A stretch of DNA of 64,000 nucleotides from a virus. Below the pieces are notes generated by a model. That model ran no database searches, was not told the DNA's origin, and was given only the letters and a program-made list of their open reading frames with translations. Made by a program: the position numbers and the translations under genes. The DNA is taken from the IMG/VR virus record IMGVR_UViG_3300037993_001242, positions 64,001-128,000 of that record. The stretch is one strand, 5' to 3'. Of this stretch, positions 26,999 through 31,795 are shown piece by piece; the stretch's first letter is position 1, and each line of letters starts with the position of its first letter.

Positions 26999-27774
26999 AC
27001 TACGACTATTTTAACAACTGGCATCTTGGCGACTGCCTGTGGCAATGCGTGTTCCTGCGCAAAGCCGCGACGGCGCATCCCGATCACAGTTTTACTTTTT
27101 ACTGCCGGGCCGATTACCTCAATCAGCTACAGGAAGTCATCGCCGATCTACCCAACGTCACACTTAAACCACTGGAGCAAAAGACACCGGGCGCTATTGA
27201 CTGCTGGATGGGCACTGGAGCCTACAACGGCAAGCAGTACTGGCACAATCATCCGCAGCGGAACGATGTCGTTTTCTTTTTCATCGACTGGTTCAACCGC
27301 CTGTGCGAGCAATCCAAAATAGAGCCGCTCTTTCGTGACCGAACGGACTGTCTTTTCGAGTATCCGGCGCTCCACAGCATCAATGCCCCGACCCCGGACT
27401 TTGATTATCTGGTCATCAATTCCGCACCCCTGAGCGGCCAATTTAACTGGAACCCGACCGCCATGAACCATCTGATCCAGCGGCTGTCGCAAAAACAACG
27501 CGTCATCACAACCAACGCCTCCGCTGTAACCCATTTATTCTGCACGGAAAAACAAGGCATGACGGTGACACAGATTGGCAACATTTCTTTGCGCGCCAAA
27601 GGCATTGTGATGGTGGCCAACGGCCCTTGCTGGCCCACTTACAATGTCCAGAATTTATCCAAACCACGCGTCGTTTTGCTAAATCAGGTAAAAATTGATT
27701 ATGGCGCTCCCAATCCACACTTCAACAGTACGGAAGCGGCTGAAGCATATCTTCAACAACAAGGACTGCTATGA
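26995..27774 (+). CDS. GT9/GT-B-like glycosyltransferase
   Basis: Start MNYDYF; HLGDCL near N-terminus; VMVANGP. Confidence 0.55.
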   Translation: MNYDYFNNWHLGDCLWQCVFLRKAATAHPDHSFTFYCRADYLNQLQEVIADLPNVTLKPLEQKTPGAIDCWMGTGAYNGKQYWHNHPQRNDVVFFFIDWFNRLCEQSKIEPLFRDRTDCLFEYPALHSINAPTPDFDYLVINSAPLSGQFNWNPTAMNHLIQRLSQKQRVITTNASAVTHLFCTEKQGMTVTQIGNISLRAKGIVMVANGPCWPTYNVQNLSKPRVVLLNQVKIDYGAPNPHFNSTEAAEAYLQQQGLL

Positions 27775-28307
27775 CCTATAAAGACGAACTTTGCCGAGCG
27801 ATGAAACACCTTTCAGCCCAACCTAAGATGCGTTTCATCGGCTACAATGTACGTTACAGCCACCGGGCGGAAGGAACCTTGGTTGATATTCCAGAGCAGC
27901 AATTGATCGAAACGCCGGTGGCCGAGAATTTGATCATTGGACTGGCAACCGGCTACGCCCTGCAAAATTTTACCGTCATGGCTTACATCGAGCGCTTCGA
28001 TTTTGTCCTTAACGCGCTTGATGCCCTGATCAATCACCTGTCCAAAATCAAAAGCATGTCGGGCGGCCAATTCAATCCGAACATCCTCATTCGCACCCTC
28101 GTTGGAAATAGAAAATATCCGCTTTTTAGCGGCATGACGCACACACAGGATTTTTCAGAACCTCTTAGCCAGATGTTAAGATTTCCTGTTGTTCAGCTTC
28201 ATACGCCCGATGCGGTATTTAGGGAATATGCCCGCGCTATCGATGAATTGCAGGAGCATTCAACGCTATTGGTCGAATATCGCGACAATTATACACTCGA
28301 ATGTTAA
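27771..28307 (+). CDS. TPP-dependent E1 beta/transketolase pyrimidine-binding subunit
   Basis: ETPVAENLIIGLATGYAL...RFDFVLNALDALIN. Confidence 0.88.
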   Translation: MTYKDELCRAMKHLSAQPKMRFIGYNVRYSHRAEGTLVDIPEQQLIETPVAENLIIGLATGYALQNFTVMAYIERFDFVLNALDALINHLSKIKSMSGGQFNPNILIRTLVGNRKYPLFSGMTHTQDFSEPLSQMLRFPVVQLHTPDAVFREYARAIDELQEHSTLLVEYRDNYTLEC

Positions 28308-30424
28308 CCAACAAGTACAGCGACCTGAAGATCGTCGGGTTTCCCGACAAACTTCAATCTTTTCGTGATGGGACGATCACGGCTCCCATCTACGTGCGCT
28401 TAAAGCCGATAAATCGTTGCAATCACGATTGTTTTTTCTGCCTCGTTGCGGGCACTCGTGTAGTTACAGAAAATGGTGAAAGTGCAATCGAAAACATTAA
28501 AACTGGCGACCGCGTATTCGCGCCTGATGGAAGCCTGAACACAGTAACCGCCGTAAGCAAACGCCTTGTACATGAAACAGTTATCCTCAAATGCGGCAGT
28601 TATTCCATCGAAGCTTCTCCTGAACACCCGCTACTCACGCTGGAAAGCTGGAAGGCTGCTGGTGAATTTCACAAAGGGGATACCGCCTTTGTGCGCGTGC
28701 GGATGCGGACAAATAGTGAAAGCACACCGCCAAACGTGGAATCTTTACGTGGTAAAACACCAACCAAGAATGGCAGCTTCCGAGGAACATTACCGGCGCA
28801 TATCAAAATTGATGACAGCCAACAACCCAATGAAACGCCCAGAAGTAGCCCAAAAAATGGCGTTATCACGCAGAGGCGTAAAAACAAAATTCAGCCCAGC
28901 ACACCGCGAATTTTTATCAAAAACAGCCCGCCAACGAATGTTGTCCGACAAAAATCCAATGAAAAATCCAAAAATAGCTCAAAAAGCTTTTCGGAATCGA
29001 GTGCAGCGACCAACATCGTTGCACGAATCCGCCTTCAAAGACTGGCTGGAAGCAAACAACTTTCCAATTCAGCACACGGGCAACAATTTCATGTGGATCA
29101 ATCGAAGGAACCCGGATTTCAGAGTAACTGGACAGAAAAAAGCAATCGAATTAACACAAGGCCAGTGCTTCAACAATCATCGTATATTGCGAACAATGGA
29201 GAATTATGCCAGACCAACAATTCAACATTACCAAGCCAGCAAATGGCAATGTCTTGTGATATTCTTAAAAAAGAACACCGAACCTTGTCTACAACTGAAA
29301 AACGCGCTGATAAATTTTATGCTGCCGGAATGCAACTGGAGCGGGGTCTGGAACTACGACAAATTGATTCTGTTCGGAAAATTGCAAAAACTAAATTAGT
29401 CTATAACTTTTCTTGCAGCCCTATTGAAGCTTACGAAGCCAACGGATTTGTGGTTCATAACTGTGTATACGCACAAAGCAACCGCAAAGAAATTCCCGCC
29501 ACCGAAGACGGTCTGGATCACATTATATCCAAAATGCACGAGGACATGAATGAAGCCGACGTGATCCCAACCGACAAAATGCTGGAAGTGCTCGATGACT
29601 TCAAAGAAATCGGCGTGCGCGCCGTGACCTACTCCGGCGGCGGCGAACCGCTGATGCACCGTGACATCGTTCTTTTTATGGAGCGCACCCTGCAATACGG
29701 CATCGATCTTTCGATCATCACCAACGGTCAGTTGTTGCGCGGACGGCGGGCCGAGGTTCTGGCAGCGGCAAAATGGGTTCGCGTCAGCGTCGATTACACC
29801 ACCGCCGGACAGATGGCCTTGTCCCGCCGCGTACCCGAACGCCTTTTTGACGAAGTGCTTGATAATATCCGGCAGTTTGCAAAAATCAAACAACCGGCCT
29901 GCGACCTTGGCGTCAATTACATCATCCACCGCCAAAATTATCACGGGTTGGTGCCTTTCACCAAAGCGCTCAAAGACTGCGGCGTCACCAACGTCCGTTT
30001 CAGCCCCATGTGGATGCCTGATTTCATCAACTACCATGCACCCATTAAAGACGAGGTTGGTGCCCAGTTGCGTGAAGCCCAAAAGCTTGTGGATCATGCG
30101 TTCACGGTCAATTCAACCTTCGATCTCGGCAGCAGCGCGCATCTGCCAAATCGAAGCTATACCCGCTGTTTTTTCATGCAGATGGTGCCCGTGATCGGTG
30201 CAGACCAGAAAGTATACGCCTGCCACAACAAAGCCTACGACCATACTGGATGCCTCGGCTCCATCGCAGACAAACGTTTCAAAGACCTTTGGTTCAGCAA
30301 TGAAACCAAGCGCTTTTTTGAAACACTGAATCCGATGGAGACTTGTCGCCATCAGTGCGCCAACGACTCCAAAAACCGCAACATCCTTAACCTGATAGAC
30401 GCGCACATTGATAATTTCGTATGA
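28301..30424 (+). CDS. Radical SAM/SPASM protein, intein-containing
   Basis: CNHDCFF-[intein]-C, YSGGGEP, ITNG, C-terminal YACH...CRHQC. Confidence 0.92.
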   Translation: MLTNKYSDLKIVGFPDKLQSFRDGTITAPIYVRLKPINRCNHDCFFCLVAGTRVVTENGESAIENIKTGDRVFAPDGSLNTVTAVSKRLVHETVILKCGSYSIEASPEHPLLTLESWKAAGEFHKGDTAFVRVRMRTNSESTPPNVESLRGKTPTKNGSFRGTLPAHIKIDDSQQPNETPRSSPKNGVITQRRKNKIQPSTPRIFIKNSPPTNVVRQKSNEKSKNSSKSFSESSAATNIVARIRLQRLAGSKQLSNSAHGQQFHVDQSKEPGFQSNWTEKSNRINTRPVLQQSSYIANNGELCQTNNSTLPSQQMAMSCDILKKEHRTLSTTEKRADKFYAAGMQLERGLELRQIDSVRKIAKTKLVYNFSCSPIEAYEANGFVVHNCVYAQSNRKEIPATEDGLDHIISKMHEDMNEADVIPTDKMLEVLDDFKEIGVRAVTYSGGGEPLMHRDIVLFMERTLQYGIDLSIITNGQLLRGRRAEVLAAAKWVRVSVDYTTAGQMALSRRVPERLFDEVLDNIRQFAKIKQPACDLGVNYIIHRQNYHGLVPFTKALKDCGVTNVRFSPMWMPDFINYHAPIKDEVGAQLREAQKLVDHAFTVNSTFDLGSSAHLPNRSYTRCFFMQMVPVIGADQKVYACHNKAYDHTGCLGSIADKRFKDLWFSNETKRFFETLNPMETCRHQCANDSKNRNILNLIDAHIDNFV
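28439..29461 (+). mobile_element. Intein (341 aa) splitting the CX3CX2C motif
   Basis: Starts CLVAGTRV, has block B ASPEHPLLT, ends VYNFS...FVVHN followed by Cys. Confidence 0.93.
28662..29399 (+). CDS. Putative homing endonuclease nested in the +1 frame of the intein
   Basis: LCACGCG, NPMK repeats (NUMOD3-like), PTSLHE, NPDFRV..KKAIEL (PD-(D/E)xK/Vsr-like). Confidence 0.8.
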   Translation: MNFTKGIPPLCACGCGQIVKAHRQTWNLYVVKHQPRMAASEEHYRRISKLMTANNPMKRPEVAQKMALSRRGVKTKFSPAHREFLSKTARQRMLSDKNPMKNPKIAQKAFRNRVQRPTSLHESAFKDWLEANNFPIQHTGNNFMWINRRNPDFRVTGQKKAIELTQGQCFNNHRILRTMENYARPTIQHYQASKWQCLVIFLKKNTEPCLQLKNALINFMLPECNWSGVWNYDKLILFGKLQKLN

Positions 30425-31161
30425 GCAACGCACATCCCAGCACCCATATTCCCAATATCCGTCGTCTTGAAATCCACATCACGTATCGGTGCAACCTGCG
30501 CTGTACCCACTGTTCAAACAACATCTCGCAAGCTCCCAGTCAGGAGATCATGCCCGCCGAACGAATCGAAAACCTGCTCAATGAGTCGGCGCGGCTAAAC
30601 TGGCTGTGGGACTGGCTGGTCTTGCACGGCGGCGAACCCACACTGCATCCAGAGTTTGAGCGCATCTGTGCCCTGCTGGCCGATTACAAAAAGCGCTCAA
30701 ATCCCGCCGTGAATCTGTTTGTATGCACCAACGGTCACGGCGAGTTCGTGCGCAAGCAGCTTGCCGTAACGCAACAATACGGCATTACAAACTGCAACAG
30801 CGACAAAAACGGCAGTCCACTCATAGTGTACCACGTTCCGCTTAGCGTCAGTCCTGAAGACTGCGGCGAGGACTACTACCTCGGATGCTTTCAAACCAGC
30901 CGCTGCGGCATATCCTATACCAACAGCGGATTTTACGAATGCTCCCCCGCCGGAGCTTCGGAACGTCTTTTCGGTTATCCACCGCTGGTCGCGGAACTCA
31001 AAGACTTAACCGCAGAAAAATTAGCCGAAGGTTTTAAAGTTCATTGCAAGCACTGCGGATATTCCAGACTGCAATTGATACCCCATCCCGACGCACCCAT
31101 GAGCAAAACTTGGCTCGAAGCCATCGAACGATACAAAAACCGACATGAAACAGCGCACTAA
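30421..31161 (+). CDS. Radical SAM protein
   Basis: CNLRCTHC, LHGGEPTLH, CTNG. Confidence 0.9.
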   Translation: MSNAHPSTHIPNIRRLEIHITYRCNLRCTHCSNNISQAPSQEIMPAERIENLLNESARLNWLWDWLVLHGGEPTLHPEFERICALLADYKKRSNPAVNLFVCTNGHGEFVRKQLAVTQQYGITNCNSDKNGSPLIVYHVPLSVSPEDCGEDYYLGCFQTSRCGISYTNSGFYECSPAGASERLFGYPPLVAELKDLTAEKLAEGFKVHCKHCGYSRLQLIPHPDAPMSKTWLEAIERYKNRHETAH

Positions 31162-31795
31162 AGAGCAACTCATTGCGTTTGAAAAGCATATCCAAGACCT
31201 CTTTGAGAACGGCCAGCTACCTTTTAAAATTCATCTGGCTGGGGGCAACGAGGAACAGTTGATCGAGCTTTTCGGGCACATTCAAAGCGATGACTGGATT
31301 TTTTCCAATCACCGATCCCATTACCACTACTTGCTGGCGGGTGGAACCGAAGAAAAACTCGAAAAGATGATTCGAGCAGGCGACAGCATGTTTGTCTTCG
31401 ACCGAAGCGTAAACTTCCTGACCTCCTCGGTTCTGGCAGGCTCTTCTTGCATCGCGGCGGGCGTGGCTGCCGCGATCAAGGAACAAAACGGCAAGAACCA
31501 CGTCTGGTGCTTTATCGGCGACGGCGGAGAAGATGAAGGCCATTTTTACGAAGCCGTGCGCTACGTTGATGGCCATGATCTTCCGTGTACTTTCGTAATC
31601 GAGGACAACGACCGCAGTTGCGACGCCACCAAATTACAACGGCGAGGGCACTCGGAAATCACATGGCCACGATGCGTCTGGCGTTACCACTACGTAGCCA
31701 CCTTTCCACACGGCGGCACCGGCTGCAAACAATGGATAAAATTTGATCCCGAAATTTTAAAAGCGCAAGAAACCGCGAACAAGCATCAACTATGA
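31145..31795 (+). CDS. TPP-dependent E1 alpha-like subunit
   Basis: HLAGGNE, SNHRSH, TPP motif GDGGEDEG...EDN. Confidence 0.9.
   Translation: MKQRTKEQLIAFEKHIQDLFENGQLPFKIHLAGGNEEQLIELFGHIQSDDWIFSNHRSHYHYLLAGGTEEKLEKMIRAGDSMFVFDRSVNFLTSSVLAGSSCIAAGVAAAIKEQNGKNHVWCFIGDGGEDEGHFYEAVRYVDGHDLPCTFVIEDNDRSCDATKLQRRGHSEITWPRCVWRYHYVATFPHGGTGCKQWIKFDPEILKAQETANKHQL

Follow-up and report, generated by a model that had tools for sequence, protein, structure and literature searches.

Homing endonucleases encoded outside the frame of the intein that carries them have so far been described in one bacterial gene (dnaX, LAGLIDADG) and in one actinophage group (endonuclease VII-like), and such arrangements have been called a rarity. 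In the cyanobacterial dnaX intein, the LAGLIDADG endonuclease occupies a +2 open reading frame (ORF) (Phillips, DeSimone & Gogarten, bioRxiv 10.64898/2026.09.14.751524, crediting Gorbalenya 1998). Non-canonical inteins of actinophages carry the endonuclease outside the intein frame, and an origin by invasion of a free-standing gene was proposed for them (bioRxiv 10.1101/2025.01.02.630785). In fractured genes, the intein is split and its halves are separated by a free-standing gene for a Vsr-like endonuclease (Dassa et al. 2009, PMC2677866). Here we analyzed a 64,000-nucleotide stretch of virus DNA, hereafter the window (bases 64001-128000 of the 199-kb IMG/VR virus record IMGVR_UViG_3300037993_001242), in which a radical SAM gene is interrupted by an intein at its CX3CX2C iron-sulfur motif. 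It is likely that this is a mobile intein whose homing endonuclease is encoded as a separate +1-frame gene within its own linker. The layout (a radical SAM gene, an intein before the third cluster cysteine, a +1-frame nuclease and an open host frame) was common to 12 distinct sequences: the window, L001, L005, L014, L016, L022, L024, L025, L029, L030, L031 and L032.

Like the dnaX intein, the window intein is contiguous, with a nuclease ORF on the same strand and in another frame between the splicing domains, a host-frame segment of disordered character, purifying selection on the nuclease frame only, and Shine-Dalgarno (SD)-like motifs upstream. However, the dnaX nuclease is a LAGLIDADG enzyme in a +2 ORF of a bacterial gene, whereas that of the window is predicted to be Vsr-like and is encoded in the +1 frame at the Fe-S motif of a phage radical SAM gene; the window layout also spans a far deeper divergence (exteins 24-43% identical to the window's). 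The actinophage inteins likewise have an endonuclease that is not in the intein frame, but their same-strand case is endonuclease VII-like ('frame 3'), their VSR-like endonucleases are antisense and their hosts are terminase, DNA polymerase, capsid and ThyX genes; the Vsr-like ORF of the window is on the same strand, and its host is a radical SAM gene. Fractured genes also occur in phages and encode a nuclease of the same superfamily on the same strand between the intein halves, with the nuclease 3' end overlapping the C-intein coding sequence. In those genes a stop, a spacer and a new start interrupt the host frame and the halves splice in trans, whereas the window has a contiguous intein and a host frame that continues through the nuclease gene. 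The ShiLan-type hidden HNH endonuclease in a phage methylase (PMC11855218) is another out-of-frame endonuclease within an unbroken, stop-free host ORF, but there is no intein, the insert is not spliced out and the nuclease is HNH rather than Vsr-like. An earlier note on this DNA, made from the letters alone, had mentioned the methylase case; its statement that no out-of-frame endonuclease was known in a canonical intein does not hold, as the cyanobacterial dnaX and actinophage inteins had already been reported. In the full-text literature searched, a Vsr-like endonuclease that is out of frame but on the same strand was not found in any contiguous intein, nor in a radical SAM gene. New relative to that literature is the Vsr-like, same-strand ORF in a radical SAM intein; out-of-frame intein endonucleases as such are already known.

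The features of the locus are as follows (aa, amino acids).

28301-30424, + strand: radical SAM/SPASM ORF, 707 aa (Pfam Radical_SAM, SPASM and Hint/Intein_splicing matches)
28301-28438, + strand: N-extein, 46 aa, ending in CNHDCFF, which holds the first two cysteines of CX3CX2C
28439-29461, + strand: intein, 341 aa in the host frame (Hint_2, Intein_splicing and PT-HINT matches; intein-less alleles P0153 and L035)
28439-28702, + strand: N-terminal splicing domain, ~88 aa (Pfam Hint; 31-54% identity between loci)
28650-28655, + strand: SD-like GGAAGG, 6 nt before GTG 28662, within the host codons for intein W-K (predicted duplex -5.5 kcal/mol)
28662-29399, + strand, +1 frame: candidate homing endonuclease ORF, 245 aa from GTG 28662 (236 aa from TTG 28689)
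28674-28679, + strand: SD-like AAGGGG, 9 nt before TTG 28689 (predicted duplex -6.6 to -7.8 kcal/mol)
28692-28775, + strand, +1 frame: Cys-rich module CxCGCG...H, a putative zinc finger (CACGCG in the window)
28703-29326, + strand: host-frame linker, ~208 aa, hydrophilic, no family match
28800-29009, + strand, +1 frame: predicted helical region with two NPM(K/R)xP repeats, NUMOD-like (NPM at 28824-28832 and 28953-28961)
29010-29333, + strand, +1 frame: predicted Vsr-like / PD-(D/E)xK-type nuclease domain (conserved Glu 29025, Asp 29115 of NPDF, Lys 29139, Glu 29148 of IEL)
29327-29461, + strand: C-terminal splicing domain, ~45 aa, blocks F and G (VYNFSC...ANGFVVHN; 33-70% identity between loci)
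29462-30424, + strand: C-extein, 320 aa plus stop; its first residue is both the third cluster cysteine and the splice nucleophile

The intein is inserted exactly before the third cysteine of CX3CX2C. The intein-less homologue P0153, 80% identical to the window extein, is 366 aa long (707 minus 341) and reads CNHDCYF|CVYSQ across the junction (the bar marks the insertion point); P0155, 76% identical, is also intein-less, and both show the uninterrupted pattern CNHDC(Y/F)F-CVY(S/A)QSNRK. P0153 and the L035 allele (366 aa; empty-site DNA ...TGCTTTTTC|TGCGTCTAC...) aligned without gaps across 28438|29462, demonstrating that the intein is exactly 28439-29461. The Hint_2 match reached 33.7 bits (cut-off 28.4), and those to Intein_splicing and PT-HINT were slightly below their own cut-offs. 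The splice residues of the window are Cys1 (CLVAGT), block B SPEH with Ser in place of Thr, the C-terminal VVHN and Cys+1; Cys1, (T/S)xEH, HN and Cys+1 were kept in all loci. By its insertion, splice residues and profile match, this is a Class 1 (HINT) intein. Because the third cluster cysteine is split from the first two and the host gene is intact in 12 lineages, we infer that the radical SAM intein undergoes protein splicing. A group I intron was rejected, given the Hint motifs and the open host frame. A fractured gene with a split intein was also rejected, as the host frame has no stop across 28247-30421 and is likewise open in all 12 loci.

Between the two splicing domains, the host frame encodes a linker in which 73% of the residues are disorder-promoting and 20% are hydrophobic (GRAVY -1.08), compared with 32-38% hydrophobic residues in the flanking Hint halves; it is probably an unstructured spacer. 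Its aa sequence was no more conserved than that of the closed third frame, and only the absence of stops was kept. The +1 frame is open across 28557-29396 (280 codons) and ends in a TAG stop at 29397-29399. A search of 1.8 billion representative proteins with the +1 product returned 526 relatives at E<=1e-3, of which 18 reached E<=1e-30. Both NPM repeats were invariant and fell in helical hairpins of the structural model described below. Pfam NUMOD3 matched 11 of 89 relatives, the window copy not among them, DUF559 matched 4 of 89 and Vsr 1 of 89. The free-standing relative L027 has the CxCGCG module as well, and the in-frame intein relatives lack it. In some out-of-frame endonucleases the module occurs twice in tandem (L022 3-917, L029 2477-3463, P0014, P0019, P0022-P0024, P0026 and P0029), and P0051, P0055, P0099 and other database proteins consist solely of 4-8 tandem copies of the motif.

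Over 199 aligned codons of six loci, the +1 frame had an aa identity of 48%, compared with 24% for the host frame and 25% for the closed third frame, and nucleotide identity at +1-frame codon positions 1, 2 and 3 was 0.56, 0.64 and 0.39, respectively. Protein-level selection acts on the +1-frame nuclease sequence only. The host frame contained no stops in 8 of 8 tested loci, although 3-8 were to be expected (P<=0.003 for seven loci, 0.024 for the shortest), and the third frame carried the expected number in these eight. The results support a host frame that selection keeps open as merely translatable, not as a second functional sequence. GC content of the overlap ranged from 0.44 to 0.62 across the 12 loci. 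L001-3, L004/5/23 and L006/16 are identical over the ORF, and the remaining loci are too divergent for dN/dS. A scan of genome contigs returned no relatives, which is not evidence of absence from cellular genomes. In L016 (3989-4585, = L006), the nuclease core (NPDF...IE) is deleted and both frames are still open; this looks like a decaying endonuclease copy in a still-contiguous intein.

The open host frame of the window was not a chance product of the nuclease sequence. Synonymous-codon permutation of the +1 protein, with codon usage kept, gave a mean of 7.0-7.8 host-frame stops, and a stop-free host frame appeared in only 1 of 20000 and 0 of 5000 trials. The third frame of the window had 17-18 stops, as expected. 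When 53 equal-length blocks were taken from the window's other long ORFs, the equivalent frame averaged 8.2 stops and was never stop-free. Codons ending in T did not precede a codon starting with AA, AG or GA in the +1 frame (0/56 in the window, 0/433 over eight loci), whereas T-ending codons elsewhere made up 19%. This avoidance is another expression of the missing stops, yet it reveals by what means the frame stays free of them.

The +1 ORF alone had no match in Pfam, NCBIfam or PDB sequences, and its only match in PHROGs was weak, to a family of unknown function. A 23-sequence profile likewise matched nothing in PDB; an 89-sequence profile reached Vsr and 3r3p with E values of 2.3e-4 and 9e-4. 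An earlier AlphaFold model from a 10-sequence alignment had a pLDDT of 69.8, with the nuclease core below 50, and its Foldseek matches were not significant. With the 89-sequence alignment, AlphaFold2 gave a mean pLDDT of 95.3 and a pTM of 0.72. Residues 110-217 of this model (29010-29333) matched Vsr (1cw0_A; Z 10.4, Foldseek E 9.5e-4) and the catalytic domain of I-Bth0305I (3r3p_B; Z 9.2, rmsd 3.6 A, 97/98 residues aligned, Foldseek E 1.9e-3), and the Foldseek probability for a Vsr-type fold was 1.00. The model thus confirmed a Vsr / I-Bth0305I-like fold for the predicted C-terminal domain of the +1 protein. The Asp of NPDF (codon 29115-29117) aligned with Vsr D51 (RPDF) and I-Bth0305I D196, and the Glu of IEL (codon 29148-29150) with an acidic residue of I-Bth0305I (IEV), at the position of Vsr F62; in the 89 sequences, the former was invariant and the latter was retained in >=90%. 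I-Bth0305I is the prototype of the EDxHD family (Taylor et al. 2011, PMC3239194; PDB 3r3p). The window protein resembles it in its putative N-terminal NUMOD-type repeats, its predicted C-terminal Vsr fold, and a conserved metal-binding Asp with an extra acidic residue (IE), and its domains follow the order seen in the EDxHD family. The two differ in that I-Bth0305I is encoded by a group I intron, whereas the canonical His and second Asp are missing from the window protein, which carries a CxCGCG module in addition. Residues E, D, K, E, R, Y and HY were invariant in A2, a 10-sequence alignment of the closest relatives, and this strong conservation argues that the +1 protein is functional, with activity as a prediction.

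These results bear out everything that the earlier note had seen in the DNA, and they support its central interpretation. The intein does split the CX3CX2C motif (P0153 and L035 are continuous across the junction), the host-frame center is hydrophilic filler with no family match, and the CACGCG, NPM and NPDF/IEL elements it had listed were all located in the +1 frame. The Vsr-like assignment was upheld by the fold and profile searches, and the argument that two indels cannot explain the layout was strengthened by four independent assemblies with 0 indels. The claim that dual coding is selected stood only in part: stop depletion of the host frame was found in 8/8 loci, but aa conservation was confined to the +1 frame.

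Two candidate starts precede the Cys-rich module of the window. A GTG at the first position recurred in L001, L005 and L024, and so did GGAGA-N9-TTG directly before the first cysteine. The intein's own codons for W-K-x-A-G and G-D supply these signals. At least one SD-like sequence with a start codon lay upstream of the Cys-rich module in 11 of the 11 loci readable through the 5' junction (L022 is cut at the contig end). In L016, +1-frame stops occur 10 codons before an ATG-Cys start, so that this copy is unreachable by an earlier frameshift. A promoter and terminator scan of 28200-29600 found none above shuffled expectation and none upstream of the ORF; the nuclease ORF therefore probably shares the host mRNA. 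No RNA run was found among the sequencing runs listed as holding window sequence. Internal initiation is the best reading, favored by the SD-like sequences and starts in the readable loci, the absence of a conserved slippery motif and the upstream stops of L016.

The distribution of the intein was sporadic. Intein-less alleles 76-80% identical to the window extein were found in syntenic phage contigs (Transket_pyr, radical SAM, E1_dh, baseplate J). By contrast, intein-bearing exteins were only 24-43% identical to that of the window, and their intein parts were 43-70% identical, with the N-splice, C-splice and nuclease parts reaching 54%, 70% and 45%, respectively. That the closest hosts lack the element, and that it is better conserved than the hosts carrying it, points to horizontal spread. 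Other radical SAM enzymes (QueE-like and others) have inteins at the same CX3CX2|C position in which nuclease relatives with 30-37% identity are fused in frame; such a fusion also occurs in NrdD. The in-frame inteins P0048, P0063, P0067, P0070 and P0116 share the insertion point and the nuclease family with the window, but they have no Cys-rich module and lie mostly on the tree's opposite side. P0149 (941 aa) and P0141 (925 aa) carry the nuclease family in frame in an NrdD intein and in a two-intein protein whose other intein holds a LAGLIDADG domain. In a quick maximum-likelihood tree of 118 domains, whose root position is not fixed, 23 of 23 out-of-frame rows lay on one side, together with 22 unlabelled rows mostly bearing the same tail signature. 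The other side held 16 in-frame rows and L027, and the in-frame P0116 was basal on the out-of-frame side; support for the split was moderate (SH-aLRT 82-85). This pattern is consistent with one ancient invasion of the intein by a free-standing endonuclease gene, a route proposed before (PMC2677866; bioRxiv 10.1101/2025.01.02.630785). We speculate that, with a GC-rich origin, a host frame open from the outset would have been less improbable (P about 0.02 in L016).

A mobile intein with a separately encoded nuclease is argued from the anatomy of the locus, its conservation, the stop avoidance, the predicted fold and the sporadic distribution, and several observations weigh against it. The disorder of the linker is read from its composition. 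In the 10-sequence clade alignment, the general-base His (Vsr H69, I-Bth0305I H213) is replaced by an invariant Phe 7 residues after the IE Glu, and no conserved acidic residue was found at the position of I-Bth0305I D222 (Vsr D97), with residues counted by hand. The free-standing relative L027 retains the general-base His. Since the canonical His and the second Asp are missing, nuclease chemistry is not assured. Candidate starts are not positionally conserved, with L025 lacking both GTG and TTG, and for this reason independent translation can only be inferred. Splicing, internal initiation and cleavage are likewise deduced from the DNA. All copies are old (nuclease identity <= about 60% between loci), so that no recent homing event was seen. 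The +1 ORF might instead be a relic whose nuclease is no longer made or active, in a passive, splice-competent insert passed on by vertical descent. The missing His and Asp of the EDxHD motif, the coreless L016/L006 copy with both frames still open and the lack of near-identical copies in different exteins would all suit a relic. However, a relic would gather stops and lose its codon-position signature, whereas the ORF was open in 12 of 12 loci with the position-dependent identity given above, the residue set of A2 was invariant, the fold was predicted at a pLDDT of 95 and the intein parts resembled each other more than the exteins did. We consider a relic unlikely.

Programmed +1 ribosomal frameshifting is a slightly less probable alternative and, in our view, a poor candidate; it would deliver the nuclease as a fusion to the N-extein and the N-splicing domain. 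The +1 frame is indeed open for 35 codons upstream of GTG 28662 (from 28557), and further in several loci, which together with the scattered start codons is what frameshifting would allow. However, the loci share no slippery or stall motif at the 5' junction, two +1-frame stops lie 10 codons ahead of the Cys-rich motif in L016, the free-standing L027 begins 3 codons before the same motif, and candidate starts follow SD-like sequences in all loci readable through the junction. A second frameshift back to the host frame, giving a canonical fused intein, is unlikely, as it would leave the openness of the host frame unexplained. That sequencing or assembly indels merely pushed an ordinary in-frame endonuclease domain out of frame is hardly conceivable, even though in-frame relatives exist at the same site of radical SAM inteins (P0048, P0063, P0067, P0070, P0116). 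Across 28301-29700, a stretch that takes in both frame junctions, contigs from four independent peat-metagenome runs had 0 mismatches and 0 indels, which excludes sequencing error. The frame offset was identical in 12 divergent loci, and each tested locus had a host frame stop-free over 160-270 codons, which indels would not yield; the out-of-frame copies also separate from most in-frame ones in the tree and carry the extra Cys-rich module.

In the preferred reading, a mobile intein with its nuclease gene in the +1 frame, the radical SAM gene would be translated straight through in the host frame, and the Hint halves, joined by the ~208-residue spacer that is presumably unstructured, would splice out. 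Splicing would join CNHDCFF to CVYAQ and restore the CX3CX2C iron-sulfur motif. From the same mRNA, an internal start at GTG 28662 or TTG 28689 would give a nuclease protein of 27-28 kDa. This protein presumably cuts intein-less alleles at ...TTTTTC|TGTGTA..., after which repair would copy the intein in. Selection would then act on the aa sequence in the +1 frame, and in the host frame only against stop codons.

The source of the window is a peat jumbo phage, and DNA near-identical to the window was found in many peat and wetland metagenomes. Immediately 3' of the intein-bearing gene lies a second radical SAM gene (30421-31161, + strand), whose CNLRCTHC motif is intact and intein-free; its start overlaps the stop of the first gene (ATGA, 30421-30424). 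The two are flanked by stand-alone halves of a TPP enzyme, Transket_pyr (27771-28307) and E1_dh (31145-31795), both on the + strand. The same cassette stands beside baseplate J or portal genes in related phage contigs (L001, L035 and P0153 contigs), with glycosyl- and methyltransferases, and is probably a sugar-modification pathway. A second intein or a second nuclease copy was looked for in the 199-kb record itself, and neither was found.

The locus exposes a systematic annotation error, in which gene callers pick the nuclease ORF and shorten the host gene. Public gene calls are wrong in the window, where P0002 (393 aa; window 29243-30421) begins within the intein of the window gene; in L029 (2501-3918) and L031 (2501-4284), the nuclease ORF is annotated and the host gene is cut short. 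On the practical side, the locus provides a candidate intein whose long linker is probably dispensable, along with a compact, predicted Vsr-type nuclease aimed at the radical SAM cluster motif.

With the present case, out-of-frame intein endonucleases gain a third nuclease family, here on the same strand and in another host enzyme. At least 12 members of the lineage are confirmed, and in the tree they are joined by about 45 clusters (50% identity). We lean towards the view, if only by a little, that these loci make up a single deep lineage of contiguous inteins, probably with one origin, in which a free-standing-type Vsr-like gene with its own Cys-rich module and start codon has been permanently overprinted on the linker, the host frame serving as a translatable spacer only. 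Both proteins would come from one mRNA, the element would have spread among radical SAM genes 24-43% identical, and such a lineage would supply the contiguous intermediate missing from the model of Dassa et al. 2009, between endonuclease invasion, fractured genes and inteins with in-frame endonucleases. The overlap has persisted despite very deep divergence and GC contents that range widely. It provides a clean natural example of selection on a reading frame solely for its openness, and it supports the model in which inteins gain their nucleases by invasion of free-standing genes.

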